Shown: one piece after another, positions 18,000 through 58,253 of the stretch | Numbering within the stretch: position 1 is the stretch's first letter | Layout: the number at the start of each line of letters is the position of its first letter | Source of the DNA: Raillietiella orientalis | Taxonomy: Eukaryota | Assembly: GCA_036172245.1 (NCBI GenBank) | Contig: JAYWIR010000108.1 | Coordinates: 1-64,000, forward strand | Length of the DNA stretch: 64,000 nucleotides | Direction of reading: 5' to 3' | Notes under the pieces: model-generated | Told to the model about the DNA's origin: nothing | Seen by the model: the letters and a program-made list of their open reading frames with translations, nothing else | The model's database searches: none | Made by a program: the position numbers and the translations under genes

Positions 18000-19600
18000 A
18001 TGCCTGACGCGACCACCAGGGATGGCCAGGGGGCAGCGGCAACACCGCCCCCAGAGGCGATGGCGAGACAGGGGGCGGCGGCAACGTCGCCCCCGGGAGG
18101 CCATTGGGTGGGGGCATCCGCCCCCACAGAATGGGTCCCCGCTGCGACGCGGGCGTGGAGCGCCGTTGTGTCGGCGCCATCGCCTGCAGCCGCTGCGGAA
18201 TTGTCGGCCTATGTAGAAGAGGGGTACAACCCCTCATTCTTCTAGAAGGTAAACAATTTATATTCTTTAGAGAGCGCGCGCGCCTTCTGGAAAGGCATGC
18301 GCGCTCTCGATGTGAAAGAGGAGGAGCTCAGCGCTATGATCATCCGCAGCGGAGGTCACTACGTTGAGGACATCTGCAAACAAGCAGAGCTGGCCCAACG
18401 ACTGCTTAAAACCCCCGTGGTGATGGGGACGCGCAGGCTCCTTCCTATTACGGCGGACCGCAGCATGGTGGTCAACCTGTTAGGTGTTACCGCGCGGATG
18501 CGCAAAGAACAGGTGCGCGCCGCGTTGGAGGAATACGAAACGGTCCACGCGCAGTGGACGGAAGTTAGTCCTTCCGAGGACTACACGGGGCTTCAACACG
18601 GCCTCACTGCTGCGCGCCTGACCGTTCGGGAGGGCTGCACTCTTCCCCACAAACTTGTGGTTGAAGGCGAAACCGTCGACCTCTGGTATGTAGGGAAGTC
18701 GAAATACTGTAGCTTCTCCAATACATCGGGCCACCCCGAAAAGAGGTGTCTCAATGTGCAGTGCCAAGTATGCGGCACAATGGGCCACACGAGGGAGGTG
18801 TGCCCAAAAGCAGCAGTGCGGGTGGTTTCCAAAAGAAACCTCAAAAAACTCGCCCGGCTTCTGCAGAAAAGGCTGGTGGCGAAAGCTGCCGCGAAGGCTG
18901 TACCACCTGCGCCCAAGACTCAGGCCGCACACGAGACCCAGGCGACCAACGCCGAAAAAGTTGAGGGAGCCGGCCAGGAGACTGAGTGGCAGGTGGCAAC
19001 GGCCAAAAAATCAAAGAACGAGAAGAGGATGGAAAATAAAATTGCCTACGCGTTTTCGATGTTGCCGAACGCTGCCGGAAAGAACTCGCCGCTACCGACG
19101 ACCTCCCCTCTGTTGAAACAGTCAACAGCGAGGGAAGCGAGCCGGCGGCGGTGTCCGTCATCGACAGCACTATCGATGACGTAGCCTGCGCGCGAGCCGC
19201 GGAGGAGCTGGCAGCCTCGTTGCAGCCGGAACCCTACAAGGCTGGCAAGAAGGCCGTAAGGCGTCCGGCCTCCCCTCAGGAGTCCCCCACTTCCGAACCC
19301 TAGGTGGAGGCCGGAAGCGCAGATTCCGTTTCTACCGCACCGCGCAAGAAGGCTGGACGTAAGTCCACAAAGCCAAGGAAGCTCGTCTCCCCCGTCGAAG
19401 GAGAAGAGATGGCTTCCGCAAGCGAGGGTGCCATGAGCGTGGGAAACTCTCGGGACCCGTCGCCCGAGAGACTCCCACGCACGGACACGGAAGGGATGGA
19501 GGGGATGGAGGCCGAACAGGTGCCTCAGGTGCCTGAGAAGGCCGAAACCTCCATGGACATCCCGCCCGCCTCGCAAGAGGAGGGCTCCCCCACACCTTAA
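18000..19600 (+). pseudogene. Family D ORF1 (RRM-like region and 2 CCHC knuckles), interrupted by stops and a deletion
   Basis: VDLWYVGK..YC.F....GH....C and CQVCGTMGHTREVC. Confidence 0.85.
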
Positions 19601-19614
19601 TCTTCCCAGCAGTA

Positions 19615-22600
19615 ATGCCGGGAATCTCCTCCCGCCGTCGACTGCGCATCGCCGTTTGGAACGTGAACGGCATGACAGACGCCGGCAGGAGACGAGACAT
19701 GGCCGCCCTTCTAAAGTCCTACGACCTTGCGCTGCTGCAGGAGATCCACGTGATCTCTGCAGAAGAAGCGCAAGAGATCGAACGGATCTCCGGAGGGCGG
19801 CCATGGTACAGGTGTGGGAGAGCGAAAAGTTGCGGTGTCGCCTACCTCCTACGGCCAGCCGTCGAGGCCGCAGTTCAAGGCGTGCGGTTCCACGATGACG
19901 GTCGTGTCGGCCAGCTGACTCTCAGGTGGTCCGACTCGATCGATGTGATCGTCACGAACGTGTACGCACCGAGCGGCAAGTTCCTGATGAACAGGAGGGT
20001 GAGGAAAGAGCTTTCCTTTGCCCTCCGGCGAGACTGGCTCACCGAAGCAGGCGTGCGGAATGCCCATCTGGTTGCAGGCGATTTCAACGTTTGCCTAATA
20101 CCAGATGGGCGGAATCCCGAGGTTGACCTGGTCAACGAGGTGTGCATGGCGGTGCACACCTTTATTTGTTGGCCAGTGCACCGGGGATAGAAGACAGCAT
20201 TGACCACGTGTTTCTTGACGAGCACCTGTGCCCTCGCGTGGGCAGGCGCCGCAATTTACCGTGCGAGCTGTTCGACCATCGCCCGCTAGTCCTCGAGATC
20301 CATCCGCGCGACAGGGGCCCCCCCTCGTCAGCATCGCGTCTCTCAGGGGACTGGCTGAAGCTCCCGGACGCGGCGGAACATCTCCGAACGTTCATACGGA
20401 GCTTCAGGCTGCGGACACTCCAGGATTGGGACCGCTTCAAGCGGTCGGTCCAGGAGTTCTCCGACCAGTTCCCCCTGCACCGCCTATCTACGGATTTGGG
20501 ACCGGGGTCCGCGACGAACGAGCGTTCCTGCAGGCCCGTCGTTACGCCAGGACCCCGGACATCCGCAGGCTGGCGGAATACAAAGCGGGAGCAGAGAGGC
20601 AAGCCTGGCAGTCCGGATCGGCCAGCGTACTGGACGATCAAGGCCAGGAGCACTCGCCACCTGCCCAAATCCGCGGCCTACTGCGGAGTTACTACTCCTC
20701 CCTGTATGCCAGGGCACCTCCGCTGGGGAACGTCTCATGACTCCTGCTTTTGGAAGGCGCTCCAGCGATCGAAGAGGAGCAGAGAAAGACCTTCGACGAG
20801 CCTTTCACGATGGACGTAGTCCTCTCGTCCATCAAAAAGCTCAAAAGGCGAAAGGCTCCAGGGGAGGACGGCCTGCCCGCGGAGTTTAATCAAACTTTCG
20901 CGGCTGAGCTTCCTCTTCTGGTACAGGAACTCACCTTGCTGATACGCGAAACAGGTGACGCTCCCGCCTCGTTTCGTTCGGCAAAGGTGCGGCTCCTCCC
21001 TAAGGGAGGAGATCTGAGGAGCATGAACAACTGGCGTCCCATCACAATAGTGAATGCGGACGCCAAGTTGGTAGCCAAGATGTGGGCAGAGCGTCTGGGA
21101 CGGGTTGCCAACATCTTCATCAGCACGGAACAGACATATGCTGTTCCCGGTCGAAGCATGGAGGCGAACCTGTTCCACGCTTCCACCTGGCTAGAGCTCC
21201 AACATGAAAGGAGCTTGATGCGCAGCCGGTATTCCGGTGCCTGCACCGGCAAGGGGTTGGATGGTCGGGTAGGGGAGGGAGCCCTAACGGTTGCAATCGA
21301 CTTGCGAAAAGCATTCGGTTGCGTCGACCAGAATCTCCTTCTGGAGCTTCTGAAACGCTTCAGCTTCCCGGCCTCATTAGTGGCCTATCTGCGCTCCTGC
21401 TGGCGCGACGCGCTCATCAATGTTACTTTCAGCGGGCAGACCGTGCACGGCGTGATGGTGCGGCGTGGGATCCGGCAGGGAGAAATCCTGAGCCCCTTGC
21501 TCTTCAGTACCTACTTTGAGGTGGTACTGAGAGCGTACAGGAAAACTCTGGCGCACCTGCCGCACGACTGTGCCGGTACTTCGGCCGTTTCAGCATACGC
21601 GGACGACCTTATGCTGCTGCTCCCTATGTCCACCCTGGCTGCGGCGGTCGAGGAGTTCTTCCACCTGCTGCATCGGGGAACCGGACTTACGGTGAAAACG
21701 GCGAAGTCGTCCGTGATGACAGTTGGTGCGGCGTGGGCAGGGCAGCAGGACTAAGTCCGTTTGGGGATCCCCACGGTGGGGCACTTCAAGTACCTTGGTG
21801 TGCCGTTGGGGGACTACTCCCCTGCGGAAGCGTGGTCCGACTGCCTCCAAAAAGTAGAGACGGCTATCGGCCCGTTCCGTGGCGGCAGGTTTTTCCTGCC
21901 TGAATGGGCCACGGTTTGGAACACGTTCGCGGCTCCTATCCTCCGCTCCCTGCTTTTTGTTTGCCCTCTACAGAGAGGATCAAAAAGCGGACAATGGACC
22001 TTCTATGTATCACCCTTTGGGGCAACGGGAGTGCCCGAGTTTGCTTAATAGACTTGTGCGCTCCTCGTCGGGATGGTGGTCTGGGCCTCCTGACGCTGGA
22101 GCGGCTGGAGCTTCAGCTCCAGTTCCGCTTGTCGGCACTCGTTCCAGAGTTGTGGTGCACCTGTTGGTGCGTCCCTACACGTCTCCTACTCCAGCAACCC
22201 ACCGGCAAGACGGGACTTACGTCGTTACTTGCACGCCGTCGCGGCGTCAAAGGATGCGGACTCCAGTTACGGAGGGTGGCTGCGCTGTATCGGAAAAACT
22301 AAATATTGCTCACCTGTCGCCCGTTGAACGCTAGCGCCTGGTTGCAGGAAACCGTTCGAACGTAAGGACAGTTCGGCATGCAACGCTCTCAGCAGGAACG
22401 AAGGTTCCTGTTTGGGGGTTACAGAAGTTGCACGCTCCGCGAGACCCTGGAGGATCCAAAGAAGAGAGCGTGGGCAGGAAGAACCCCCTCGCTGCTGCGC
22501 TGTTCTCCCTGATGGAAGATCTGGACAGCGATGTTGCGGCGAAGTGGGTGGTTACAGTAGCAATCTCCGGAAAGGAGAAGAAGATAGGGGAGTGTAAGAC

Positions 22601-23191
22601 GGGCCAGTTAACAGAAGCTGCCACCCCGAGTACGCCTCCCAATGAACTTCTGCGCTGATGCGCGCTGTTCGATGTTCCCATTGAACATCTGAAGTGGCCA
22701 CCGGTGCTCATGAACACTTCCGCCCTCCCCTTAAAATGGCAGGAGTCGGCTCTATTGTTGCAGCACTGGGGACTCTCCTGCAACGTCCGCCGACACCATT
22801 GGACCTGGGGAGCGGTGGACCCCAAATGCGTCAGGTGTGGGGAACGGGACTCCCTCCCCCACCTGCTAGTGGATTGTGTTGTCCTTCGGCCCCTTTGGAT
22901 TTGCTTACTGCGGCCGTCGGAATCCCCTGCGGCAACCCCGGTGACGCACTGAAAGCCCCCTTCGTTGCCGACGCCCTCCGGCCAGCGGCCTCGTTAGCAG
23001 CTTTGTGCTGCCTACGCGGGATCGTCACCGCTTAGAGCAAGGCTACGGGAGGACATCGCAACCAGGGTGCCTTCCAGCCAGCCTCCCAGTTCCTTAGGAG
23101 GGCGTTCCGATGGCACCATCTGGATCCAGGAATACAGAAGGAGCTTGCTGGCATCCTGCAAAGGATGCAACGGCACCACCAGCAACTGTGA
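19615..23191 (+). pseudogene. Family D ORF2 (APE endonuclease, RT, zinc finger), frameshifted
   Basis: WNVNG, LQE, NVYAP, GDFN, IDH; PGEDGLP, WRPIT, DLRKAF, GIRQG, YADD, KYLG; CVRC...HLLVDC. Confidence 0.9.
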
Positions 23192-23409
23192 TCCCTTTCC
23201 TTACCCTCCCAACTTTTCTTTTCTTTTTTGTTTGGTTTTTTGTTTTTCCCCCTTCCTTCTGCTGTTGTGGTGGACCGTACCGTTCTGCGAACCGGTGACC
23301 CGTCAGGCTCTGTGTTTCTCCGTGCGTAACTGGAGCAATAGTCCAGCCACCGCACGTCTTTGTAAAACTTTATTCTACAATAAACGCCCCGGCGAAATAC
23401 GGGTGAAAA

Positions 23410-24248
23410 TCGAATGCTTTGCGCAAATCGACCGCGACTGCAAAGGCTTCCGTCGAGTCCCTCCCACGCTCTATCCGATGTTCCTGGTTAGAGGGGAGCG
23501 CGAGGCACTTTTGACCATCCTGAGCAACGCTTTGTCGCAACTGCCACCATGAGCTGGCGAGGAGCAGGTTGGCCTCCATGGTTCGTCCGGGAACAGCGTA
23601 GGTCTGCTCGGGACTCACCACGAAAGCGGCCACCCGCCCCAAACGCTAGGCCCACAACTTGGCATACAACTTAGCGTCCGTATTCACTACTGTGATGGGA
23701 CGGCAGCTGCCAATGTTGCGTAGGTCTCCTGACTTCGGCAGGAGACGTACTTTTGCTGATCGAAACGAGGCGGGAACTTCGCCGTGTTCGCGGATCAGCG
23801 TACCTAGCTTGAGCACCAGGGGGGCCAGCTCTGTCGCGAAGTGTTTGTAAAATTCCGCGGACAGGCAGTCCTCCCCTGGTGCCTTCCTGTTCTTCAGCCT
23901 GTTGATGGCGGAGACGACCTCCACCAGCGTGAACGGTTGTGCCAACCTGCAACGATCCTCCTCCTTGAGCGCGGGGAGACCATCCGCCAGCAGGCGCTGC
24001 GCGAAATGGCGCTGCTGTGTTAGTGGCGCGTACAAGGACGACTAGAACACTCGCACGATGCGGCTTACCTGAGCTGGGCTGCAGCGCTCTTAGTCCTGAT
24101 GGTCCAGCAAGCAGACCAAGCCCGACTGCAAGGCCTGTCTCTCAGCCTCAGCCTCGAATTCTGAAAGGCGACGAACGTCGGGACGCATGCAATAACGGCG
24201 GGCCTTAAAATATGCCCGCTCGTTCCTGACTCCTTCGCCGAATCCCCG
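23410..24248 (-). mobile_element. Family C ORF2 linker and RT N-terminal fragment
   Basis: RGFGEGVRNERAY...APGED.L..RPIT...AVAVDLRKAF. Confidence 0.88.
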
Positions 24249-24347
24249 CTGTGGAGAGCGGACGTGCTTTTCCTGCGCTCCGCCTGCGTGGCATAGCGAG
24301 TGTTTTTTCTTATTAAGTGATTTGTGCGTGCACATCGTCGGTGTCCG

Positions 24348-26221
24348 ATGGCAGCGTTGCCAGAGGACACCGCGATGGAAGTAGGCGTGATGGAGGCTTG
24401 TTCGTCCCCACAGCCTACTGGATCAGGGGCATCCGCCCCGGAATCGTCCCCGCCGACGCCGAGGTCCTGGAGCGCCATGGTGTCCGCGCCTAGCGTGGAA
24501 GCCATGGCCGAGATGGAAGCCTACAAGAAAGCAGGGTATAAACCCTCGCTAGTCTACAAGGTAGCCAACCTTTTCGATGGGCGAACTGCACGCGCCTTTA
24601 CGAAGGCGCTGCAGGACGCCAATATTTTTGAAAAAGATCTCGACGGCCTCTGCGTCCTCAGCGGCGGGCAGCGGGTCGAGGTGGTATGCAAGGATATCAC
24701 CTTGGCCCGACACCTGATCACCGACCCGCTGATCGTTGATGGTCGGAAGATCTTGCCGATAACGATGGACCGCTCGGTGGTGGTCCATCTCACTGGGATC
24801 TCAAGTCGCATGACGAGGTCAGCGGTTCGAGAACAGCTTCAAAAACACGGAGAAGTGCACGCGTTGTGGCCGAAGTGCACGATTTTTCAAGGCTACAATA
24901 GCCTTTTCAAGGTCAAGCTGCGGCGCGTATCACGGTAAAAGAGGGTGGTGCGCTTCCCCATAAGCTGGAGGTCTGCCAAGAAGCGGTGGACCTCTGGTAC
25001 GTGGGAAAACGCCAATTTTGTGGCTACTGCAATGCAGTAGGGCATCTACGAAAAAGGTGCCCGAACATTGTGTGCCACCTATGCGGCGAAAAGGGTCACG
25101 TTCGGCGCGTGTGCCCCAAGCGCCCCACCCCGGTGCCCCCTGCCGCCAAAAAGGCGCTGGGAAAACGTGGAAAGCTGGTAGAAAGACCAGCTCGCGAAAA
25201 TGGTCGTTCCCAACTGCCAGCCTCCCTTCCTCCCGTACAGACGTCGGAGGAAATAGCTATCGTGGACGCGGGAATGGAGGAGGGTTGGCAGCTGGTTCAG
25301 GCCAGAAAAGAGAAAAAAAAGAAAGTAATGATAGAAGAAAATTCGGAGAAGAAAACTGCCGGCAACAAGAAAAAAGCCGCGCCGCATTCAAAAAAAGAAC
25401 TCCGCGAATGCTCGGTGGCACTGGAACGCTTAGCCGTTCCTGCCGATTCCGCCCGCGGCAATGTTCGCGGAACAGCTGATGCGGACGCGATGAATACTCG
25501 CGTGGACGAGCCCAATCTACGTGTAGAGGGTGAGACGCGAGACTCGCGCGCCGACAGCCAGGATGCCGCGCTCGATAAAGTCGCGGAGGAGCCCGCGGGA
25601 ACGTTCGCCGTCAACGATGACGCCGCGCTCGATAAGGTCGCGGAGCAGCCCGCGGCAACGGGAGCCGCTGGCGAAGACGCGGCCTTCGAGAAAGCGGCGG
25701 AGGAGCTCGCAGCAACGCTCGCCGAGCGCGAAACCCCGTCGCGCAAGGGCGTACGCAGGTCGGCTCCGACGAAGAAGGCCCCCGCAGGTGAGTGCGACCT
25801 GGGGGCCGGAAGCGGATCCTCCTCCTCGGAGGCACCCCCCAGGAAGTCGGGACGCAAGTCCCAGAAACCCAGGAGGCGCCTCCCCTCCACCTGCGAGGAG
25901 GAGAAACCGGAAGTAAGCGGCAGCGTGGGAATCCCGGAGGGGGAATACCCACGCCCGGAAGCCGTCGAGTCGGCCACCCCCATAGAGGAGGGAGAGCAGG
26001 GGGGTGAAGTCCTCCCTGCAGTCGCGAAACCTGAGCAGCCCGAACCCATGGAGGAAGGCGAACAGGTAGGCGCGACTCCACGTGCAAGTGATCCGGCCGA
26101 CGCGCCGGCACCGATGGAGGAGGAGGAAAAGGTGCCTTAAGTACCTGTCCCTCCTCCTCCTCCACCTAGCGTCCTGTCCCAGCAGGTGGCGGACGCCGCA
26201 TCGCCGTTTTCCCTGGACTAA
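24348..26221 (+). pseudogene. Family A ORF1 (RRM-like region, 2 CCHC knuckles, acidic tail); frameshift near 24910 and a late stop
   Basis: CGYCNAVGHLRKRC and CHLCGEKGHVRRVC. Confidence 0.88.
25561..25720 (+). repeat. 57-bp coding tandem repeat (3 units) in ORF1
   Basis: DAALDKVAEEPAGT / DAALDKVAEQPAAT / DAAFEKAAEELAAT; units start at ~25561, 25618 and 25675. Confidence 0.85.
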
Positions 26222-29200
26222 CACCTGGGCTCGCCAGTCGCCGTCGGATTCGCCCGGCCTGTTGGAACGTCAACGGGGTGCTCGACGACGGCAACAGGCG
26301 AGATACAGCCGACAGCCTGCGTGAGCTCGACCTGGCGCTGCTGCAGGAGAATTACGTGATCGCCGCGGCAGACGCCCAGGAAATCGAGACGATCGCGGGG
26401 GGTCGGCTGTATTGGCGATGCGGCCTCCGCAACACCTGCGGGGTCGCGTTCTTCGTGAAGCCAGTCATCGACGCTGCCGTAAAGGGCGTGCGGTTTGATG
26501 ACGACGGTCGGATCGGTCAGCTGATTCTCAGCTGGTCCGACTCGATCGACCTAATCGTCACAAACGTGTATGGCCCCAGCGGCAAACAGGGTTACCGCGA
26601 CCGCACCAGGCTGCTGGAAACCCTGAAGCGCGACTGGCTGGCGGATACCAATGTGCGAAAGGCTCACCTGATAGCGGGAGATTTCAATCTCCGCCTGCTA
26701 ACAGGTGAGCCGGAAACACAAGTGAACGCGATGAACGAGTTGTACGCCGCCATGCGTGCGCGCAACTTGTTCGGGGGTGAGAAAGGAATGGTCCGCAGCA
26801 TCGACCACGTCTTCCTGGACGCTGACCTGTGTTCACGCGTCGGCAAACGGGGGAGGGTTGTGTCGACGTTGTCGGACCATTCCCGGCTAATTTTCGAGAT
26901 GCGGCCTCGTGACAAAGAACCGCCATCCAGGGATTGGCGTCTGCCGGTGGACTGGACGCGACTCTCAGGTGCGAAGGAACACCTTTGCGAATACCTTAGA
27001 GGCGTCACGCTCCGGAATCTCCAGGACTGGGACCTTTTTAAGGAATCGGTCCGCGAGTTCTGTGAGCAGTTCCCCCTGGATCGCCTGCCCCCCGGATTCG
27101 GCGAGGGTGCTCGCAACCATGGAGCCTATTTACAGGCTCCTAGGTACGAGAGAACCCCTAATGTCCGTCGCCTGGCCGAGTACCGCGCCGGGGCCGAACG
27201 CCAAGCCTGGCAATCCGGGTCGGCCAGCTTGCTGGACAACCAGGGCCGGGAATGATCGTCCGCGACGTCGGTACGGCATCTCGTGCGGAGTTTTTATTCC
27301 TCCCTTTACGCCAGGGAGCCCCCGGAACGAAACGCCTCTCGATGCTTGCTTCCGGATGGCACCCCGGCATTAGGGGAGGAGGAGATGGAAAGGCTCGACA
27401 AGCCTTTTACCACCGGCGAAATTCTCGCCGGTATCAAAAGGCTCAAGAGGCGTAAAGCTCCAGGGGAAGACGGCTTGCCTGCGGAGTTCTTTCAGAGCTT
27501 CGCGGAAGAGCTGGCACCCCTGCTGCTTAAGTTGATCAGGCTGATCCGAGACGAAGGCGATGTTCCCGCCTCGTTTCGGTCAGCCTGAGTGAGGCTCCTT
27601 CCGAAAGGGGGAGACCTCAGGAATTTAATGAACTGGCGTCCGATCACAATCGTGAATACGGACGCCAAGTTGATAGCAGGGCTATGGGCTTCGCGTCTGG
27701 GGCAGGTGGCAGAATCCGTAATTAGCCCGGAGCAGACTTATGCTGTTCCCGGGCGAAGTATGGATGCCAACCTCTTCTTCGCAAGCACATGCGTGCACCT
27801 GCAGAGAAGAGAGAAGAAAGGAATAGGGAAAGTCGGCAACCCCACATTGGGGCCGGTAGCAGGGCTGGGAAGGGACCCCCGGGCAGGGAAGGGGGCCCTA
27901 GCGCTCGCAGTCGATCTCCACAAGGCGTTCGACTGTGTAGACCAGGAACTCCTCTTGGAGCTCCTGGGTCGCATGGGCTTCCCACCCTCCCTGATTTCCT
28001 ACCTGCGCTCTTGCTGGCGGAATGCGATGACTATCGTCTGTTTCAGTGGACAGAACGTGTATGGCGTGCCGGTGCGGCGGGGCATAAGGCAGGGCGGTAG
28101 CCTCAGCCCCCTGCTCTTTAGCACCTACTTTGAGTTGGTGCTGAGAGCGTACAGGGTGACTTTGGCCCCCTTGCCGAGCTCGTACCTCGGCACGCCCACC
28201 GTAGCAGCCTATGCCGAAGACCTTCTGCTCCTGTTACCTATGTCCACCCCGGCGAATGCGGTCGGAGACTTCTTCGATCTGCTCAGCCGCGGGACCGGAC
28301 TGCAGGTTAACAGGGCGAAGTCGTCGGTTGTGCCAATAGGTGCGCCGTGGGCAGGGCAGCAGGACTGGGTCCATCTGGGGATCCCCACGGCGAGGTGCTT
28401 CAAGTACCTTGGTGTGCCGTTGGGGGACTACTCTCCTGCGGAAGCGTGGTCCAGCTGCCTCCAAATAGTCGAGACGGCGATCGGCCCGTTCCTGGAAGGC
28501 AAGTTTCACTTGCCGGAACGGGCCACGGTTTGGAACGCCTTCGCGGCCCTCATCCTCCGCCCCTTGCTTTTTGTTTGCCCTCCCACCGTGGAATCCAAGA
28601 AAAAAACGAAGGACCTCCTCCGTATCGCCCTTTGGGGCAACGGGAGACCCCGAGTCCCACTGAAGGACTTGTGCGCTCCGCGTCGGGACGGCGGTCTTGG
28701 CCTCCTGACGCTGGAGCGCGTGGAGAAGCAGCTGCGGTGGCGAACCCTCGTCATCGCAGCGAAGATGTGGTGCACCCCTTGGTGCACTCCAGCCCGCCTC
28801 CTGGCCAGCCGTGTGTCCCGTTGCGATGGACTCGCGTCTTTTCTTCTGAGCCGTGGCCGGAAGATGCGAAGATGCGGCCTACTGCTCGGGCGCATGGCAA
28901 CATTGGCCAAGGAGAACAGCTGGATGGTTTGCTGCCCCGCCAACTCCTTCGCCTGGCTGGAGGAAAATATTGGAACGTGGGCAGTAGTCAACCAGAGAAG
29001 CCACGAGACGTGGAATCGTCTCCGATGCAGCCCCTACGCCCGCTGCACGCTGCGGAATCTCCTGGAGAGTCCAGCAAGATGCACGTGGGCAGAGACGACC
29101 TGTCTAGCTACGGCGCTGCCCTTCCTGAAGATGGCACTTCACAGCAGCCGGACGCCAAGGTGGCAAGTCTCCTGATGCATCGAGGGACGCGAAAAGTTGA

Positions 29201-29817
29201 TCAGCGGCTGGACAACAGGAGAACTGGCAGACGCCACGACCCCGAGCGTCCATCCGCGAGGACTAAGAAGATGGGGCGAGCTGCTGGCCATCCCTATGGA
29301 TGTGCTGAAGTGGCCCCCGCTTCTTCAGGAATCCAGGATCCTGCCCCTCAAGTGGAAAGAGTCGGCGTTGCTGTTGTTGCATTGGGGTTTACCCTGCAAC
29401 GCACGCCGCTCTCACTGGACAAGAGGAGTTGTGGATCCTGCGTGTGTCAGGTGCGGAGAGCGGGAATCGCTCTCCCACCTTATTGTGGACTGTGCTGCCC
29501 TTCGTCCCCTTTGGGAACGGTTTGGGACGATCCTCGGTCTCCCAGCGGGCAGTTCCCCTAGTGACGTTCTTCGGCCCCTCTCCGTGAAGGACGCCCTGCA
29601 GCCAGCCGCAGCCCTTGCAGCATTGTGCTGCGTCCGAGGCATCGTGACGGCATGGAGCGACACCAACAAGGAAGGAGTGAATCAACACGCGAGGGATGTC
29701 ATCCCATATGCCCAACGCTTCTTGCGGAGAGCTGCTGGATGGCCCTAACTGGGGAATATACGGATGGACCTCGAGGGCTTCCTTCAACGGATGGGCCCTC
29801 CTCTTAGCGAACAGTGA
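26221..29817 (+). pseudogene. Family A ORF2 (APE endonuclease, RT, zinc finger) with nonsense mutations
   Basis: Largely collinear ORF pieces 26278-27255, 27283-27588, 27589-29175 and 29197-29748 carrying all the motifs (YAED in place of YADD). Confidence 0.9.
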
Positions 29818-30025
29818 TCCCTTCCCTGCCCCCCAACCTCATATGTTTGTTTGCTTTTTTGTTTTTATTTTTGTTTTTCCCCATCCCGTTTCGCTGCCGG
29901 GGAGTGCCACGCCGGGCTGCGTCCCGGCGTCCCGGTAGGTCCCGTGCATAAGGCCGTGAGCGGGGCCTGGTACCGCAATTGTAGAGTTTTTATGAATAAA
30001 CGCCCCGGGCGTACCCGGGTGGCAA

Positions 30026-31545
30026 CGCCGAATCCCCGGGGCAGACGTTGCACAGGGAACTGTTCGCAGAACTCCCGGACCGAGTCCTTAAATAGGTGCC
30101 ATTCCGCGAGACTCTGGAGTCTGACGCCTCGCAGGAATTCGCGAAGATGTTCTTTCGCTCCTGACAGGCGCGTCCAGTCCCCTGGCATACGCCAATCCCT
30201 GGATGGCTGTCCCTAGTCGCGCGGGCGCATCTCGAAAACTAACCGGGAATGGTCCGACAGCGTCGATCCAAGTGTCCCTCGTTTTCCGACTCGTGTGCAC
30301 AGGACTTCGTCGAGGCAGACGTGGTCCACGCTGCTGACCATCCCGCTTATTTCTGTCAACAAGTTGCGCGCGCGCATGGCGGCGCACAACCCGTTGATCG
30401 CGTTACCCTATGCTCCGGGCTGATCTGAGAGCAGACGGACGTTGAAATCCCCTGCTATCAGATGCGCCTTTCGCACATCCGCGTGCACCAGCCATTGGCG
30501 CTTCAAGGTTTTCAGTAACGCGTTGCGCTGCTGGTATCCCTGTTTACTGCTAGGAGCGTACACATTGGTGACGATGAGGTCGATCGAATCGGACCATCTG
30601 CGAATCAGTTGACCGATCCGTCCGTCGTCCCCAAAGCGCACGCTTTTCACGGCCGCGTTAATGGCTGGCTTTACGAAGAACGCGACACCACAAGTGTTGC
30701 GGGCGCCGCATCGCCAGTACAACTAACCTACCGCAATCGTTTCGATTTCCTGGGAGTCTTTTGCGGTGATCACGTGGATATCCTGCAAAAGTACCAGGTC
30801 GAAATCTCGCAAGGTGGCGGCTGTATCTCGTCTGTTTTCGTCGTCGCGCAGCCCGTTAACATTCCAACTGGCCGCGCGGATCCGACGGCGACAGGCGAGT
30901 CCAGTTGTTATTCCTGGGAACCAGGCGGTGGGGCTCCCGCCACCTTTTGTAGCGGGTCGCTGGACGGGGTTGGCGTGTTGCCCACCAACTCTTCATCCTT
31001 CTTTCGTGCCGACGTCTCCGGCTGCCCGTGCGAAGGGAGTGTTGTTCGTACTTGTTGGCCCACATCCATTGGTGCGGGTGGTTCAGGTTCAAGGGTTTCA
31101 GAGGGCATTGCTGACCTCTGGTTACCCCGCTCCCTTGGAGTCGCCTCCTCGTCGACTTCCGCACGTGGGTGACGCCCGACTTGGGCTCCCACGCTGCCAA
31201 CCCTCCACCATTGGATCCCCTTCGCGCGGAAACGCAATGCAACTTCGGGGTTCCTGGGATTTTCGCCCCGCTTTCCCTGGTGGTGCTTCCGCAGAGGAGG
31301 ATGCACTTCCGGCCTCCCGGTCCGACTCACCTGCGGGGGTCACTTTAGTCGCTGCCGGCCTATGCAACCCCTTTCGCGAAGGGTTCTCGCGTTCGGCAAG
31401 CGTTGCCGCAAGCTCGTCGGCGGCCTTCTCGGAGGCTGCGTCCTTGGTTTCGGCGATTTTGTCGTCCGGCTTACCCTCTTCGCAAACGGGGGGTGGGATT
31501 TCGCGCGCATTCGTCGCGGCGGGAAAATCGATCGAAGCCGTATCG
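30026..31545 (-). mobile_element. Family A-type fragment (ORF1 tail and endonuclease), cut at RGFG
   Basis: AADELAATLAERE; NVYAP, GDFN, SDH; ...FPVQRLPRGFG. Confidence 0.85.
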
Positions 31546-33668
31546 CCGGAGGCTTCTCCCAATTACTGAAGACCGGTCGGTGATCATTCACCTGATCGGT
31601 ATCACGTTCCGGAAGACGAAGGAAGCCGTCCGGAACGAATTGGAAAAATTGGCAACTGTCCAGGCGCTGTGGGGAAGGCCTACTCCTTTTGTCGATTACG
31701 ACGGGTTGCTTGGGGGCCTGGGTGCAGCGCGAGTGACGGTTCGCAAGGAATGTGAGGTTCCCCACAAACTCACCGTCAACGGTGAATCCGTTGACGTGTG
31801 GTACGTGGGGAAACCCAAGTTTTGCGGCTGCTGCAGCAGCTTTGGTCACCTTAAAATGAGGTGTCCGAGCGTGCAGTACCAGCAATGCAAACAAGCGGGG
31901 CACACCCGTCTGGTGTGTCTCCAAAGCACAGTCCGCGTCGTGTTCGCGAAAAACGCGAGAAAGCGCACGGCTGAAAAGAGGAAAAAGCTGGCAGCTCGTG
32001 CTGCTGCTAAGGAGGTCACTTCTGCCACCAAGGCAAAGGCCAGCCCCGAGACCCCGGTGAAACACGCCGAAAAGGTCGAAGGCGAGGGTCAAGAGCCAGG
32101 ATGGCAGAAAGTCGATCCCAATAAAACTCCCATAAGAAGGGAAAGAACGTGGCGAAACGGAGCGAAACCGCTCTGCGCCGCCAAAAAATAAAAAGCTGCT
32201 GCGTCGTTGTAGTGCGGATTCCCGCCATCGACGAATGCGGCGCTAAAGAACTCGCTGCTGCCCCTGCTCAACCCTCCGTTGACAAAGTCAACAAGGAGGG
32301 GAGCGAAGCGGCGGCGTCCGTCATCGAGCCCACGCTCGATGACGTCGCCTTTGAGCGCGCTGCGGAGGAGCTAGCTGCCTCGTTGCAGCCGGTTGCCCCC
32401 AAGGCTGGCAAGAAGGCCGTCAGGCGTCCGGCTTCCCTTCAGGAGTCGGCCACTTCCGACCCCGAGGTGAAGGCCGGAAACACAGCATCCATCTCCGCGG
32501 CAGCCCGCAAAAAAGCAGGACCAAAGTCCACAATGCCCCGGAAGATCGTCTCCCCCGACGAAGGGGAAGAGATGGCTTCCGGTAGCGAGGGTGCCATGAG
32601 CTTGTGAAACTCCCGGGACCCGTCGCCCGAGTGAATTCCACGCTCGGACACGGAGGGGATCGTGAGGATGGAGGCCGAACAGGTACCCCAGGCGCCTGAA
32701 GAGGCCTCCGTCCTCGTACCGATGGACCTTTCCTACACCTGCCCCGCGGCAGTTGTCGAGAAGCCACTTTCCCAGCCATAATGCCGGGAATCGCCTCTCG
32801 CCGTCGTCTTCTCATCGCCTGTTGGAACGTGAACGGGCTAAGCGACGACGGCAAGAGGCGTGACGTGACCGCCACCCTGGCATCCTTCGACCTGGAGCTG
32901 CTGCAGGAGATCCAAGTGATCGCCGCAGTTCAAGCGCGGGAGATCGAACGGATCTCGGTTGGGCGGCTGTTGTGGCGTTGCGGCACCGCGAAATCAAGCG
33001 GTGTCGCCTTCCTGCTTCGGCCAGTTATCGATACCGCAATAAAGGACGTTCGGTTCGATGACGCAGGTCGCGTCGGTCAGCTGACTCTCAGCTGGTCCTC
33101 CTCTATCGACCTGGTCGTCATCAACCTATACGCTCCTATTGGAAACAACGCGTTGAGGGCGAAGGCAAGAAGGGAATTCTACCTTGCCCTGAGACGCGAT
33201 TGGCTGACCGATGCAGGAGTTCGCAAAGCGCACCTGATCGCAGGTGATTTCAACCTGCGCCTGCTTTCAGTTGCGCCGGATACACTGAACGACCGCGTCA
33301 ACGAGTTGTGCGCAGAAATGAACACGCGCAATTTGTTGGCCGGGGACACGGCCATAGAAAGCAGCATCGATCACGTGTACCTTGATGAGCACCTATGCTG
33401 TCGGGTGGGCAGGCGCGGCAAGGTACCATCCGAGCTGTCGGATCATGGTCGGATCATGTTCGAAGTGCGTACGCGCGACAAGGGCCCCCCCTCCTCAGCG
33501 TGGCGTTTGCCAGGGGACTGGCTGAAGTTTCTGACGCTGCGGAGCCCCTCCGCGCGTTTATTAAGGGCTTCAGGATTCAGACACTTCAGGACTGGGACCG
33601 CTTCAAGCGGTTGGTCCAGGAGTTCTGCCACCAGTTCCCCCTTCATTGTCTACCCGCGGGATTTGGGG
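31546..33668 (+). mobile_element. Family B element, 5' part (partial ORF1 and endonuclease)
   Basis: LLPITEDRS, CCHC knuckles, TAATG at ~32779, endonuclease motifs; ends at LPAGFG. Confidence 0.87.
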
Positions 33669-36600
33669 TTTCCACCCGGGTGCGCCCGGGGCGTTAATTG
33701 TAAAAAACTCTACAAGAAAACGTGGTACAAGGCCCCACTAACGGCCACACAACACCGGACCTGTTGAGACGCCGGGACGCAGCCCAGCGTGACGCTCCTC
33801 GGCATTGGAGGGGGATGGGGATGAAAACAAAATTAAAAATAAAAATAAAGGAAAACAAAAACAGTTTCGAGGAAGGGTAAGGGATCACGTTCCACTTAGA
33901 AAAGGGTCCATCCTTCGCAAGATGCCCTCTAGGTCCATCTTCGTCTTTCCCAGATGGGACCATCTCGCTGCTCTCCGCATGAAGCAGACCGCATACGAGA
34001 TAACATTTCTCACGTTGGCATCCACATCTTTGTCTCGAATGTTGCTCCAAGCCGACACGATGCCCCGGATGCAGCAGAGGGCTGCAAGGGCTGCGGCGGG
34101 CTGCAGGGCGTCCCGCACGAAGAGGGGCCGAAGAACGTCTCTGGGCGCGCTGCCCATTGGGAGCCCGAAGGTCGTCCCGAACCGTTCCCACAGGGGTCGG
34201 AGGGCAGCACAGTCAACTAGTAGGTGGGGGAGCGATTCCCGCTCCCCACACCTGGCACACTTAGGCCTTACACTCCCCCGCGTCCAGTGGAAGCGGCGCG
34301 GGTTGCAGGGTAGACCCCAGTGAACAGCAGCAGCGCCGACTCTTGCCACTTCAGGGGGAGAAGCCTGGATCCTATGAGTATTGGGGGCCACTTCAGGTCA
34401 TCCGTGGGGATGCCGAGCAGCTCGCCCCCTCGAAGAAGTCCACGAGGGAGGGCACTCGGGGTCGTGGCATCCGCCAGTTCTCCCATGGTCCAACCGCTCA
34501 TCTTCTTCTCCTTGCCTGCGATTCGGCAGGAGAATTGCCACTTTGGCTTGCGGCCGCTGGTTAAAGCCCTCCGGAGGAAGGGCAGGGTCGAAGCTAGAGG
34601 GGTGGTCTCCGCCCACGTGCTCCTGGCGGGACACTCAAGAGTAGTCCGCACTGTGCAGCGGGCGTTGGGGCCGAATCGCAGGCGGTTCCAGTACAAGGAA
34701 GTCTGGAGGTTCAGCTTGGCCCACGTCGCAACTGATTCTTCCAGCCAGGCGGAGGAGTTGGCAAGGCTGCATACCGTTCAGTCGTTGTCTCTGACCAGGG
34801 CTTCCATGCGCCCAAGAAGAAGGCCGCATCTTCTCACCTTCCAGCCGGAGCAAAGAAGGTACGACGCGAGCCTTTGCGTCCTGGCCACACGGCTGGCGAG
34901 GATTCAAGCCGGAACGCACCAAGGGGTGCTCCATGACTTTGCTGCGATGGCGAGGGTGCGCCATCGCAGCTGTATTTCCAGGCGCTCCAGCGTCAGGAGG
35001 TTGAGACCGCCGTCCCGACGAGGAGCGCATAAATCATCCAGAGGCACACGTGGCCTCCCGCTGCCCCAGAGGGTGATGCGGAGTAGATCTTTTGTCCTCT
35101 TTTTAATGTCACGAGGGACGGGGCACACAAAAAGCAGGGGGCGGAGGATGAGATCCGCGAAGGCGTTCCACACCGCGGCCCTTTCCGGCAGAAGGAACTT
35201 GCCTTCCAGGAACGGGCCGATTGCCAACTCTACCTTCTGGAGACAACCTGACCAGGCTTCTGCAAGGCAGAAATCCCCCAACATGACACCCAGGTACTTC
35301 AGGTACCTGGCCGTGGGGATCCCCAAGCGGATACAGTCAGGCTGTCCGACCCACGTCGCACTCACCGGTACGACCGACGACTTCGCCTTGTTTACCCGCA
35401 TTCCAGTCCCACGACTTAGCAGGTCGAAGAAATCCTCGACTGCGGCTGCCGGGGCGGACATGGGCAACATGAGCAGAAGATCGTCGGCGTATGCTGCAAC
35501 GGCGGGCGTGCCGGGGCACGAGCTGGGCAGGGCAGTTATAGTCACCCTGTACGCTCTCAGCACCAACTCAAAGTAGGTGCTGAAGAGCAGGAGACTGAGG
35601 GTATCGCCCTGCCGTATGCCCCGCCGCACCGGCACGCCGTACACCTGTTGGCTGGAAAAGACGATTTTTACGATAGCATTGCGCCAGCATGAGCGCAGGT
35701 AAGAGAGAAGGGAGGGTGGGAAGACCATGCGGCCCAGGAGCTCCAACAGTAGCTCCTGGTCTACGCAGTCGAACGCCTTGAGGAGATCGACCACGATCCC
35801 TAGGGCTCCCTTCCCAGCCCGGGTATCCATTCCCAGCCCAGCTGGCGGTCCCAAAGTGGGATTGCCAATCTTTCCCCCTGTGTCGTTCAGGAAGCGCTGC
35901 ACATGGAACCATGTGCTCGCGAAGAACAGGTTGGCATCTATACTTCGCCCGGGAACAGCGTACGTCTGCTCCGCGCTAATTATGGAGTCTGCCACCTGTC
36001 CTAGACGCCAAGCCTACAGTCCAGCGATCAGCTTGGCGTCCGTATCCACGATTGTGATCGGACGCCAATTGCCCAAGGATCTCAGGTCTCCTCCCTTCGG
36101 GAGGAGCCTCACACGGGCTGACCAAAACGAGGCGGAAACGTCGCCTTCGTCTCGGATCAGCCCGCTCAACTGAAGCACCAGGGGGGCCAGCTCTGCCGCG
36201 AAACATTGAAAGAATTCTGCAGGCAGGCCGTCCTCCCCTGGCGCCTCTCGCCTCTTGAGCCTTTTAATACCGGAGAGAATTTCACCGGTAGAAAAAGGCT
36301 CGTCAAAGCTGATCTTCTCCTCCTCCCCTATTGCCGGGGCTCCATCCGGGAGCAGGAGCCGCGAGGCGTTCCTCTCTGGGGGTGCCCTAGCGTAGAGGGA
36401 GAAGTAATAACGTTGCACGAGGTGCCTGATCGCGGGAGGGGCGGATCGCTCCCGGCCCTGGTCGTCCAGCAAGCTGGCCGAACCGAATTGCCAGGCTTCG
36501 CGTTCGGCCCCGGCTCGATATTCCGCGAGGCGACGGACATTCGGGGTCCTCTCGTACCGGCGAACCGATTGATAAGCTTGATAATTCCGAGCCACCTTCC

Positions 36601-39329
36601 CGAATCCGGGGGGCCGGCGGTGAGGGGGAAACTCCTCGTAGAACTCGCGGACCGAGGCATTGAAGAGGTCCAAATCTTTCAGACTGCGGAGGGTGACGCC
36701 TCTCAGGAATTCGCAAACGTGTTCCTTCGCACCTGAGAGGCGCGTCCAGTCCCCAGGCAACCGCCACGCCCTGGACGGGGGTCCTTTGTCGCGCGGGCAA
36801 ACCTTGGTGATGATCCTGGAATGGTCCGACAGCGTCGACGCAACTTTTCCCCGTTTGCCGACCCGCGAGCACAAGTCGACATCCAGGAGCAAGTGGTCGA
36901 TACTGCGGTCCATTCCCTCCGCGTCTGCCAACAAGTTGCGCGTGCGCATGGCAGCGCACAACTCGTTAGCCGTGCGTTCTTGGGCTTCGGGCTCACCTGA
37001 CAGCAGACGGAGATTGAAGTCTCCAGCTATCAGGTGTGCCTTCCGCACATTCGTGTCGGCAAGCCAATCGCGCTTCAGGGTTTCCAGCAGCCTGGTACAG
37101 TCGCTGTATCTCCCTTTCTCACTCGGAGCGTACACGTTCGTGACGATCAATTCGATCGAGTCGGACCAGCTGAGAATCAGCTGACCGACCCGACCGTCGT
37201 CATCAAAGCGTACGCCCTTCACGGCAGCGTCGATGGCCGGCTTTCCGAAGAACGCGACCTCTCAGGTGTTGCGGGCGCCGCATCGCCAATACAGTCGACC
37301 CCCCGCGATCACCTCGATCTCCTGGACGTCTGCCGAAGAGATCACGTGGATCTCCTGCAGCAGGGCCAGGTCGAGCTCACGCAGGGTGTCGGCCGTATCT
37401 CGTCTGTTGCCGTCGTCGCGCAGCCCGTTGACGTTCCTACTGGCCACGCGGATTCGACAGCGACAGGCGATCCCAGGTGTTATTCCTGGGAAATCGGCTG
37501 TGCGGCGTCCGCCACCTGTTGGGGAGGGACGCTAGGTGCAGAAGGAGGGACAGGTGCCTCTAGCACCTGGTGACCCTCTTCCATCGGTGACGGCGCGTCG
37601 GGCGGTTCACCCTCAGGTGGGGTCGCGCCTACCTGCTGGCCCTCCTCCATAGGGGTGGGCTCCTCAGGGTCCGCGACGGCAGGCGGGATTTCGCCCCCCT
37701 GCTCACCCTAATCCATGGGGGTGTCCTGCTCGACGGCTTCCTCGCGTGGGAGCTCCCCCTCCGGGATTCCCACGCTGCCGGCGACTTCCTGCTTCTCCTC
37801 CTCGCTCGTGGAGGGGAGGCGCTTCCTCGGCTTTTGGAACTTGCGTCCCGTCTTCCGGGGGGGTGCCTCCGAGGAGGAGGATGCACTTCCGGCCCCCAGG
37901 TCGCACTCACCTGCGGGGGCCTTCTTCGGCGGAGCCGGCGATCGTACGGCCTTGCGTGAGGGGTTCTCACGCTCAGCCAGCGTGGCTGCGAGCTCTTCCG
38001 CCGCCTTCGCGAAGGCGGCGTCCTCGCCGGCGGCGAGCGCGTCGCGCGTCTCACCCTCTGTGCAAACAGAGGGTTCGCCGTCGCAAACCTCGGGCGCGGC
38101 GGAAACGGCGAGGGGAGGCTTGTCGCCCCGGGTGGCAGCCTCGGGAACGCTGATGCGCTCCAGTGCTACCGAGCACTCGCGGAGAGTTTTAGATCGCGGA
38201 CCAGGTTTTTTCGCCTTCGCGCCCAACTTTTTCTCCGCCTTCTCTTGTGAACCCTTTTTGGGTTCTTTTCTGGCCTTTACCAGCGTCCATCCTTCTTCCT
38301 CGCCCGCGTCTTTCGCGGTTTTTTCCGCCGCCGCCTGGGTTGGAGGAGGAGGAGAAGGCTGCTGGGGCCGGCCATTCTCGCGATGAGGTCTTTCGACCTT
38401 ATTCATCTTTTTCGCCTGTGCCTTTTTGGCAGCAGGTGGCACCGGGGTGGAACGTTTAGGGCACACACGACGGACGTGTCCCTTTTCCCCGCACAAGTGG
38501 CACTCGATATTCGGGCACCGCCTGCGCACATGCCTTAATGCATCGCAATAGCCACAATAGCGGGGTTTCCCCACATACCAGAGGTCGACGGGCTCCTTCC
38601 CGACCTCCAGTTTGTGGGGTAACCCAGCACCCTCGTTCACAGTGACACGCGCTGCTGCCTCGCCACCAATGAGGCTGTTATAGCCGTCAAAAATGGTTGG
38701 CTTTGGCCACAGCGCGTGCACATCTCTGTATTTCCTCAATTCCGCGTTCACCGCAGAGCGCGTCATGCGGTTCGTGATATCCGTTAGATGGAACACTACG
38801 GAGCGGTCCATGCTAGCGGGTAGGATCTTTCGGCCAGCCACATTCAGCGGAATGTTGATGGGGCGCTGCGCTAGGGCTACGTCTTTGCAAACGACCTCCA
38901 CGCGTTGCCTTCCGCTGAGTACGGCGAGGCCGTCAAGATCCTCCTCACGCACGGGAAATTGCTGTAGTGCCTTGCTCAAGGCAAGCGCGCTGCGACCGTC
39001 GAACAGATTTCCTACCTTATACACCAGGGATGGTTTTTATCCGGAGGCCCTGTAGGCCGCTTGCTCAGTCAAACTTTCCGCTCTCGGCGCGGCGAACCTG
39101 GCGCTCCAGCTCCTCGTCTTAGGCGACGAGGACGATTCCGGGGCGGATGCCCCTGATTCTGTAGGTCGTAAGGGGGGCTAGGCTCCCTCACGCCTACCTC
39201 CATCGTAATGTCCTCTGGCAGCGATGCCATCGGACACGAACGATGTGAAAAAGCACACACAGAACCAAAAAAAACCGCTTTCCGCTGCTCGTTCGCGGAG
39301 CGCCGGAAAAACACGTCCGCTCTCGATGA
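33669..39329 (-). mobile_element. Full-length family A element inserted antisense at the 'GFG' site of family B ORF2
   Basis: GGACGTG at 39318; ORF1 ~39230-37480; ORF2 ~37480-33885 with all motifs; hairpin 33675-33690. The host resumes with EGPSNERCYLQARRY; the TSD is degenerate. Confidence 0.9.
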
Positions 39330-58245: not shown

Positions 58246-58253
58246 ATACACCA

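Follow-up and report, generated by a model that had tools for sequence, protein, structure and literature searches.

Target-specific LINEs are known to insert into rDNA, small RNA genes, microsatellites and a few transposons. LINEs of the R1/R2 type integrate strictly at a single site in a multicopy sequence that is conserved, and their 5' junctions vary; their target is a host gene, the 28S rDNA, and the R2 endonuclease is restriction-like. Family A, described here, resembles R1/R2 in its single-site use and variable 5' junctions but differs in that its target is another retrotransposon, and its closest solved relative is human LINE-1 ORF2p (E 9.2e-48) rather than R2 (4.5e-15). The Tx1 group shares other features with family A, being APE-type, L1-related and directed to a fixed target inside another transposable element: Tx1 inserts into the piggyBac element Tx1D, Tx1-Mar into Mariner-N4_AMi, and Tx1-8_Crp and Tx1-4_AMi into LTR retrotransposons (Kojima, 2015, PMC4494074). 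The available part of that account also describes tandem copies 'sandwiching a TSD' formed by sequential insertion, as at 44895–44905 below, and junctions of several kinds, in which the target is duplicated, truncated or left unchanged. The Tx1-group targets described there, however, are DNA transposons, LTR elements, small RNA genes and microsatellites, whereas family A, compared with Tx1 by description, lies antisense in a conserved coding motif of the ORF2 of sibling LINEs, and its sister lineages each have an ORF2 or ORF1 site of their own.

LINEs that accumulate among other LINEs have also been described. Zepp of Coccomyxa/Chlorella and ZeppL-1 of green algae are likewise L1-type LINEs, almost confined to LINE-only clusters (Craig et al., 2021, PMC8226300). 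The available parts of that paper and of the Chlamydomonas v6 and CENH3 preprints give no nucleotide-level site or partition of sites among families. Zepp clusters are tandem arrays made mostly of 3' ends, in contrast to the many full-length and antisense nests here, and ZeppL-1_cRei is about 8.3 kb long (according to the same preprints) versus 5.8 kb for the A-lineage element. Cnl1 of Cryptococcus is a non-LTR retrotransposon that similarly prefers its own existing copies and forms nested arrays (Gusa et al., 2023, PMC9942834), but its copies are in tandem orientation near telomere repeats and belong to one family, unlike the several lineages with separate coding-sequence targets described below. 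Our literature search found no published description of a LINE lineage that inserts at the GFG codons of other LINEs.

Using tblastn and blastn, we mapped LINE copies across the window, the whole 64-kb stretch of DNA analyzed here, and found them nested in one another throughout that one window. Domain searches of the lineage of one copy, elA, returned Exo_endo_phos (6.6e-10), RVT_1 (9.3e-22) and zf-CCHC (2.3e-5) from Pfam. The zf-CCHC match lies in ORF1 and scores 24.7 bits against a cut-off of 20.8, and two CxxC...H...C motifs are visible in the translation. ORF2 has an N-terminal APE-type endonuclease followed by RT, the layout by which APE-type LINEs are recognized, and two hallmarks of target-primed reverse transcription are present, a 13-bp duplication at elA and a 5'-truncated copy at 44906–45799. 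None of the three A-lineage 3' ends has the poly(A) or A-rich tail that characterizes L1 proper. Homology searches with the lineage gave hits of 20–30% identity, one of them an unnamed Xenopus RT protein. Kojima (2015, PMC4494074), in the part available, regards a LINE as target-specific when >20% of its flanks have the same sequence; here this is true of 3/3 A-lineage 3' flanks in the window, a small sample. From its predicted domains and layout, we classify family A as an APE-type non-LTR retrotransposon lineage of the L1 superfamily.

The element elA (24249–30025, plus strand; 5,777 bp) is a full-length but decayed member of this lineage. Its 5' end is CTGTGGAGAGCGGACGTG, its ORF1 carries a frameshift near 24902–24938 and has the CCHC knuckle, and its ORF2 (26170–29748) is a single frame with three internal TGA stops, encoding the APE endonuclease, RT and zf-RVT. 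The 3' end consists of the hairpin CCCGGGCGTACCCGGG and the tail TGGCAA, without poly(A). Its host is another LINE, in which elA sits antisense at R-G-F-G codons (ORF2 aa ~308–311), and, as a preliminary description of this DNA had reported, the same 13-mer stands on both sides of elA: CGCCGAATCCCCG, the antisense of host codons CGG GGA TTC GGC G, occupies 24236–24248 and 30026–30038 (both plus strand). These are its only two exact matches in the window, both directly flanking elA. With up to two mismatches, we found 5 matches in the window versus 3.46 expected, which is no enrichment; the signal is therefore the exact pair at the ends of elA. elA also contains an unoccupied copy of the site, CCCGGATTCGGCG (27091–27103, plus strand), encoding P-G-F-G with one mismatch to the 11-nt core. 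Because both flanks are LINE sequences in which the motif is native, the pair of 13-mers need not be a true duplication.

Two further junctions fall at the same site. A second full-length A-lineage LINE, el2 (33669–39330, minus strand; 79% identical to elA over elA 1416–5777), lies antisense in the plus-strand LINE host2, its 3' end directly after the used target GCGGGATTTGGGG^ (33656–33668, plus strand, sense). Its 5' junction near 39330/39331 has a filler of 10–11 nt, AGGTAGTTAAG (39331–39341, plus strand), and no duplication like that of elA, the TSD being at most 1 nt; the earlier claim of site use at 33668/39330 is thus correct for the 3' end, at 33668/33669 and the same nucleotide, but finds no duplication behind it at 39330/39331. 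X3 (44906–45799, minus strand) is a 5'-truncated A-lineage 3' fragment corresponding to elA coordinates ~4900–5777, joined on its 5' side to a different element at 45798/45799. Between its 3' end and the 5' end of Y (42250–44894, minus strand), the 5' portion of an A-like element that corresponds to elA ~4–2774 and is interrupted at ORF2 aa ~285 by the 3' end of host2, lies the target-site spacer CGCCGAATCCC (44895–44905, minus strand; boundary ±1–3 nt). The motif at 44893–44905 had been thought to stand alone; it is instead an occupied tandem junction, separates the two members of a head-to-tail pair and counts as the third occupied GFG site.

All three A-lineage 3' ends in the window (30025, 33669 and 44906) therefore meet the same host sense-strand nucleotide, GGGATTYGGSG^. 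The junctions read ...GGCAA|CGCCGAATCCCCG, ...GGAAA|CCCCAAATCCCG and ...GCAT|CGCCGAATCCC, and the ends themselves ...CCCGGGTGGCAA, ...GGGTGGAAA and ...GGGTGAAAA, with a hairpin (CCCGGGCGYACCCGGG, then the tail) just upstream and no poly(A). The sequence CSCCRAATCCC directly follows every A copy inserted at the site, and the insert is antisense to its host in both cases with an identifiable host. If insertion into a 5.8-kb host were uniform on either strand, the chance of two further junctions at the same nucleotide and strand would be ~7.5e-9, a value that concerns three junctions, all within one 64-kb window. Exact GGGATTYGGSG occurs four times in the 64 kb and adjoins A-lineage ends each time, a count that is partly circular, the core having been derived from these same sites. 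Of 12 homologous GFG site copies in the window, 10 are empty, and none of the 10 has the full 11-nt core. Outside the window, a contig from a public run connects 30025 with 24243 across 7 letters, another head-to-tail A pair and weak support for the site (depth 2.14); its 13-nt spacer matches the target at 9/13 positions by manual count. The preliminary proposal that family A targets the RGFG codons is thus supported within the window, the 3/3 3' ends at one nucleotide coming from one clade of inserts and the two identifiable hosts being of different families. A preference among other A copies, on which that proposal had been made to depend, is seen at the 3' ends but not at two A-like 5' ends without an adjacent GFG site: that at 17032 meets host sense strand 45 bp past the GFG codons and that near 8375 meets unrelated antisense sequence, the 3' end of each element being missing.

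The recurrence could also reflect one ancestral insertion spread by segmental duplication, so that the repeated junction is copied DNA. Duplicated blocks do occur in the island, but the hosts fall in different clades (the right flank of elA and the host2 flank are 65.6% identical), the inserts at the GFG site differ from one another by 21–30%, the 5' junctions are dissimilar (13-bp duplication, filler, tandem spacer), and the host flanks of the three junctions cannot be aligned as one duplicated unit. We consider this explanation extremely improbable. Site use differs between clades. All three GFG users group in a single clade (support 98/99), and three users of a K-A-F-D site make up another (99/98). 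A site at aa ~285 is shared by a further two elements, and another two have sites of their own. Sister clades use other fixed ORF2 sites, and 12-bp and 13-bp duplications surround two other elements in the window.

We hypothesize, with a probability of roughly 0.8, that family A is an APE/RT/CCHC-ORF1 lineage of the L1 superfamily that integrates sequence-specifically into other LINEs as follows. The A-lineage endonuclease would nick the sense strand of the target LINE ORF2 right after GGGATTYGGSG, at GGGATTCGGCG^A; this motif, which lies in the EN–RT linker, spans the codons (R)-G-F-G and one further base. Reverse transcription of A RNA would then be primed by the nick, starting at the RNA 3' end, which lacks poly(A) and consists of a hairpin followed by a GGMAA-type tail. 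Priming from a sense-strand nick would always place the new copy antisense to its host and so part the host endonuclease from its RT. Second-strand cleavage would be variable: a cut 13 bp away would account for the 13-bp duplication at 24249–30025, and one about 0 bp away, with filler, for the junction of 33669–39330. Finally, re-use of one copy of a duplicated site would produce head-to-tail pairs with the site as spacer (44895–44905). Junction positions, insert orientation, the duplication, clade grouping and domain content are observed directly; these enzymatic steps, including reading of the site by the endonuclease rather than by RNA–DNA pairing, are inferred by analogy with established target-primed reverse transcription.

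In a pairing-guided alternative, target sequence downstream in read-through A transcripts anneals to nicked LINE DNA and fixes the junction. The CSCCRAATCCC downstream of every site-inserted A copy would make read-through RNA complementary to the primer strand, and co-transcribed target sequence has been mentioned as having a role in other target-specific LINEs (Kojima, 2015, PMC4494074, in the part available). However, the tails GGCAA, GGAAA and GCAT are not complementary to the primer, a one-base nick position in three hosts would still require a site-selective nuclease, and clades with different endonuclease sequences use different sites, making guidance by pairing quite unlikely. Under endonuclease targeting, a lineage would have its safe landing site in a conserved coding motif carried by related elements. 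Should this be true genome-wide, it would give a base-pair account of how LINE-only islands, possibly centromere-like, build themselves and of retrotransposons competing by mutual disruption, as well as a natural series of related APE endonucleases with differing 11–13-bp specificities, which could help in understanding, and perhaps re-aiming, LINE endonucleases.

The flanks of elA are mosaic. The left flank (23409–24235, minus strand) is a C-type host LINE fragment covering ORF2 aa ~313–588; it is interrupted at 23409, at K-A-F-D codons, by the 3' end of element E5 and continues beyond it at 17360–17908 (minus strand, ORF2 aa ~583–765). The right flank (30026–31470, minus strand; far end approximate, ~31470–31540) is an A-like host LINE fragment that takes in the C-terminus of ORF1 and ORF2 as far as aa ~315, with ...LPRGFG at its end. 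Identity to two C copies is 87.7% and 86.7% for the left flank and 93.8% and 92.6% for its continuation; these copies are near-identical inverted duplicates and therefore count as one reference, not two. The right flank is 73.8, 73.3, 73.2 and 71.9% identical to A types versus 67% to C. Informative sites upstream of the 13-mer matched A at 143 positions, C at 31 and neither at 17; downstream, they matched C at 85, A at 9 and neither at 14, placing the switch within about 15 bp of the 13-mer. Trees of the two flanks, which the preliminary description had proposed as a check, put the right flank within the A/c clade and group the left one with C (support 100/100 each). Its assignment of the left flank to C and the right to an A type thus agrees with identities, informative sites and trees alike, and by these comparisons the flanks of elA derive from two different LINE lineages that switch at the insertion site.

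How this mosaic arose is less clear-cut. A copies may have occupied the GFG sites of both a C-type and an A-like LINE, ectopic recombination between them then leaving a hybrid A element flanked by the C-type host on one side and the A-like host on the other; we regard this as plausible, at somewhat less than even odds. In that case, the 13-mers would not be one duplication, and C-type copies with CGGGGATTCGGCG at the GFG site would be expected elsewhere in the genome. Recombination inside the insert predicts a switch close to the insertion site, as seen here (about 15 bp at most), GFG sites have been occupied more than once, and the window contains other recombination products: a 269-bp near-identical conversion tract (39759–40027 with 20918–21186, in surroundings about 80% alike), near-identical inverted duplications, and non-canonical joins at 45798/45799 and 17358/17360. 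The reciprocal product is absent from the window, however, and a crossover inside elA is not traceable for want of close relatives of its parents to compare. The left 13-mer also equals the right at 13/13 positions but the two C copies at just 10/13, and at all three differing positions it agrees with the right copy. These differences favor, on sequence grounds, a true duplication on one mosaic host over two-host models, an argument weakened by ascertainment, as two of the three positions lie within the shared core.

Such a host could have been a pre-existing chimera, with A-like ORF1 and endonuclease fused to a C-like RT, into which elA inserted once with a true 13-bp duplication. The identity of the 13-mers, including an Arg codon base common to neither A types nor C types, fits this origin, as do the modular lineages found here, in which the identity of elA to el2 and Y is about 70% in the 5' UTR and ORF1 versus 79–88% in the endonuclease region. 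A random crossover within about 30 bp of the insertion point of a 5.8-kb element, though, has an estimated probability of ~0.5%, the window contains no other copy of such a chimera, and host2, the other occupied host, shows no lineage switch at the GFG site. We consider a chimeric host unlikely, if still a serious candidate. A third explanation, beyond the two raised in the preliminary description, is a single insertion event that bridged two cut sites, to which we give a similarly limited credence; some other route is improbable.

The mosaic flanks suggest that LINE lineages exchange sequence by way of shared cut sites or of the inserts occupying them. Taken further, sibling LINEs might form a guild that partitions conserved ORF2/ORF1 codons (family A at GFG, a second lineage at KAFD and a third at aa ~285), with cuts at shared sites acting as recombination breakpoints that join lineage halves, such as A-like EN and C-like RT at the 13-mer. 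We think this extension doubtful, but if true LINEs would have a built-in shuffling of endonuclease (target-choice) and RT modules.

The 13-mer CGCCGAATCCCCG occurs exactly twice in the window, each time directly outside an end of elA, an A-lineage LINE on the plus strand at 24249-30025 (target copies at 24236-24248 and 30026-30038), which bears out the preliminary description of an identical sequence on both sides of this element. On the minus strand the 13-mer reads CGG GGA TTC GGC G; the used target sequence at this site is also given as CGGGGATTCGGCG. Translation of the right flank gives ...EQFPVQRLPRGFG and that of the left flank RGFGEGVRNERAY..., with the motif on both sides, so elA lies antisense in the ORF2 of a host LINE at amino acids (aa) ~308-311, between the endonuclease and the reverse transcriptase (RT), at codons R/x-G-F-G (hereafter the GFG site). 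A second A-lineage element (el2; 33669-39330, minus strand), 79% identical to elA over elA coordinates 1416-5777, is inserted antisense in another, plus-strand LINE (host2). After its 3' end, ...GGGTGGAAA, comes CCCCAAATCCCG, and the sense strand of host2 reads GCGGGATTTGGGG^. The earlier suggestion that the homologous site was used at 33668/39330 holds for this 3' end, whose first-strand bond is that of elA, one base beyond the GFG codons; the 5' junction has no duplication and carries 10-11 nt of filler. The third use lies at 44895-44905, where the motif had been taken to stand alone (44893-44905). It is instead an occupied spacer: the minus strand reads ...GGTTGCAT, then CGCCGAATCCC, then TTGGCGAGTGGACGTG..., passing from the 3' end of a 5'-truncated A-lineage copy (44906-45799) through the target to the 5' end of an A-like element (42250-44894, minus strand). 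Kojima (2015; PMC4494074) describes tandem copies 'sandwiching a TSD' as arising when elements insert one after another at a single site. All three A-lineage 3' ends in the window thus sit at an identical bond, in agreement with the proposal that family A targets the RGFG codons, a case made up of three junctions in one window.

The core of these sites, GGGATTYGGSG, has four exact matches in the window and all four adjoin A-lineage ends, a count that is partly circular because the core was derived from those very sites. Under uniform insertion, two further hits at the same base and on the same strand have a probability of ~7.5e-9, and the events are independent: their hosts fall in different clades and the inserts are 21-30% apart. 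The homologous GFG site is present in 12 copies in the window, two occupied and ten empty. The full core is found in none of the ten empty sites, among them those of elA and el2 themselves, where the codons are CCC GGA (Pro-Gly) instead of the xGG GGA of used sites. Two A-like 5' ends, at 17032 and ~8375, do not coincide with a GFG site, and the 3' ends of both are lost. The former opens a 327-bp 5' fragment (17032-17358; 89% identity to elA) whose left end abuts a plus-strand host on the sense strand, 45 bp beyond that host's GFG codons, and whose right end meets, at aa ~765, a fragment of C-type, the LINE family of elA's left flank; neither join fits a simple insertion. In a public sequencing run (word share 0.04; 470 contig pieces, 309 of them <90% alike), one low-depth contig holds a head-to-tail A pair whose 13-nt spacer agrees with the target at 9/13 positions by hand count; the loose ends listed for this run (6 of 281 rows) gave no usable sample of 3' flanks.

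The surrounding sequence (G+C 55-63%) consists of LINE copies nested in each other, as mapped by blastn and tblastn with queries from elA. elA itself is one full-length copy whose 5' end, CTGTGGAGAGCGGACGTG, also stands at the 5' ends of other copies. ORF1 has a frameshift and a CCHC knuckle, and ORF2 runs for 1,192 codons in a single frame with three internal stops. Pfam matches in ORF2 are an APE-type endonuclease (Exo_endo_phos, 6.6e-10), a reverse transcriptase (RVT_1, 9.3e-22) and, weakly and below the cut-off, zf-RVT. Among solved proteins, human LINE-1 ORF2p is the nearest (E 9e-48), with R2 proteins at 4.5e-15 or weaker; a protein homology search gave 10 matches at 20-30% identity without an informative taxon, and comparison with a protein atlas only generic RT clusters. 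The three stops of elA are all TGA, which raised the idea of TGA reassignment. We rejected it: in-frame stops across all copies (TGA 27, TAG 24 and TAA 14 in 13,105 aligned codons) reflect ordinary decay, and every copy is decayed under the standard code. elA ends without poly(A): a short hairpin, CCCGGGCGTACCCGGG, precedes the tail TGGCAA (the A-lineage hairpin is written CCCGGGCGYACCCGGG, with the tail after it). A 3'-end hairpin was predicted for all six element ends folded, and the z-score fell below -2 (>2 sd vs shuffles) in only one of them, so the terminal hairpin was rejected as a statistically exceptional fold. In metagenomes, the A-lineage hairpin gave three matches, all one unrelated sequence without LINE context. 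Compared with 42250-44893 and 37988-39324, elA (24249-26140) shows ~70% identity in the 5' UTR and ORF1 and 79-88% in the endonuclease region; on these alignments the LINE lineages appear to be built of modules that meet near elA coordinates 1350-1424.

The sequence itself shows where the first-strand junction lies, that the inserts are antisense and that the 3' end is not polyadenylated; it also shows a 13-bp duplication in one case, none in another, and re-use of the site in tandem. From what is established about target-primed reverse transcription in APE-type LINEs, the A-lineage endonuclease would nick the sense strand of the host immediately past GGGATTYGGSG; the 3'-OH at the nick would prime cDNA synthesis on the A RNA, and second-strand cleavage would be imprecise. 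Pairing might also help to set the junction, since A RNA that reads through from an inserted copy would be complementary to the primer strand; this is compatible with the main reading and, in our judgment, quite unlikely. Each GFG insertion splits the host endonuclease from the host RT.

A tree built from the 3'-terminal ~880 bp of the ten elements having a 3' end unites the three GFG users in one clade (98/99) and, in another (99/98), three elements followed by ATCGAAYGC, the antisense of the RT codons K-A-F-D. Two elements end at aa ~285 of a host ORF2, one at aa ~1086, and one sits in an ORF1 with a 12-bp duplication, CGCGGACGACCG. Target choice follows lineage in this tree, which makes GFG targeting one case of a wider island pattern. 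One K-A-F-D-lineage element (17909-23410, plus strand) lies antisense in the C-type host, exactly at these codons, and its flanks (17893-17908 and 23411-23425) carry a 13-bp duplication, CGAATGCT[C/T]TGCG, with one mismatch; ATCGAAYGC also comes next after the 3' ends of this clade at ~50846 and ~1566. The element with the 12-bp duplication is a full-length C-type copy (56480-62064) in a minus-strand ORF1, and two more C-type 3' hairpins stand at ~63016-63039 and 63367-63390. The two elements that end at aa ~285, ~80 bp from the GFG site, are those at 11362-16893 (minus strand) and the plus-strand element ending at 42248; judging from these end points, aa ~285 looks like a third fixed landing site.

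Compared by targeting behaviour rather than by RT clade, the A lineage behaves like the Tx1 group of target-specific LINEs, whose fixed targets include DNA transposons, LTR elements, small RNA genes and microsatellites (Kojima 2015, PMC4494074). The island as a product looks similar to the nested LINE clusters of Zepp/ZeppL (Craig 2021, PMC8226300) and Cnl1 (Gusa 2023, PMC9942834). In the passages of the literature searched, we found neither a LINE that targets a conserved codon motif of sibling LINEs nor lineages that divide such motifs among themselves.

The flanks of elA derive from different families, as the preliminary description had proposed. For the left flank (23409-24248), identity to the C-type copies at 59126-59961 and 54102-54938, near-identical inverted duplicates that count as one reference, is 87.7% and 86.7% (next best, 74%). 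The same host resumes past a later insertion, at 17360-17908, with 93.8% and 92.6% identity to these two copies. The right flank (30026-31470) is 73.8, 73.3, 73.2 and 71.9% identical to A-type copies and only 67% to C copies. The best match in 100-bp windows flips at the elA junction. Among sites that differ between A and C, the host agrees with A at 143, C at 31 and neither at 17 upstream of the 13-mer, and with C at 85, A at 9 and neither at 14 downstream; this places the lineage switch at the 13-mer, from ~1432 to ~1452 in host coordinates. The two flanks give conflicting trees, with support of 100/100. Transduction was rejected on both sides: 31470-31600 contains neither the target motif nor C-type sequence, as 3' transduction of the right flank would require, and 5' transduction of the left flank is contradicted at 17360, where the C-type fragment meets the A-like 5' fragment and not a target half-site. 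A recurrent break at C-type aa ~770 was also rejected (break points 17360 and 53546 differ by 24 bp). In host2, the other occupied host, we found no sharp switch at the insertion site, and a patchy pattern with a conversion tract led us to reject one there.

Our leading, still tentative, reading is that two A copies in GFG sites of different hosts recombined (probability about 0.4). Such an event predicts a lineage switch exactly at the insert, and fits an island with a 269-bp conversion tract, inverted duplications and several non-canonical joins. That a single retrotransposition event took its primer from one cut site and was sealed to a second one is rather unlikely. Against both stands the left 13-mer, identical to the right at 13/13 positions and to the C copies (CCGGGCTTCGGTG) at only 10/13. 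Two of these three differences sit in the core common to all used sites, and the argument is weakened because a C-type copy may have needed core bases to be cut at all. That the host was already chimeric is likewise rather unlikely: only some 1 in 200 random crossovers would land so close (~30 bp) to the insertion point, and a second such chimera is absent from the window. Some other origin is very unlikely. The crossover expected if two A copies recombined is not traceable in elA, since its closest relatives in the window (89% over elA 1-320, 87.7% over 1424-2774 and 82% over 3672-4553) are too distant or too short.

Other joins and repeats mark the island. The stretches 39759-40027 and 20918-21186 are nearly identical over ~269 bp in two LINE copies that share only ~80% over the rest of their length, and from this contrast look like a recent gene-conversion tract between island elements. 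At 45798/45799, a non-canonical join in the same orientation, a K-A-F-D-type element stops at elA coordinate ~5260 and an A-lineage fragment begins at ~4900, so that the joined elements overlap by ~360 bp of homologous sequence, which is thereby repeated; the cause may be a template switch or recombination of the non-homologous kind. Near-identical inverted repeats at 54272-59792 are two C-type copies facing each other around ~57011, and those at 50585-53198 are two 5' regions of one element type flanking a 2.1-kb fragment.
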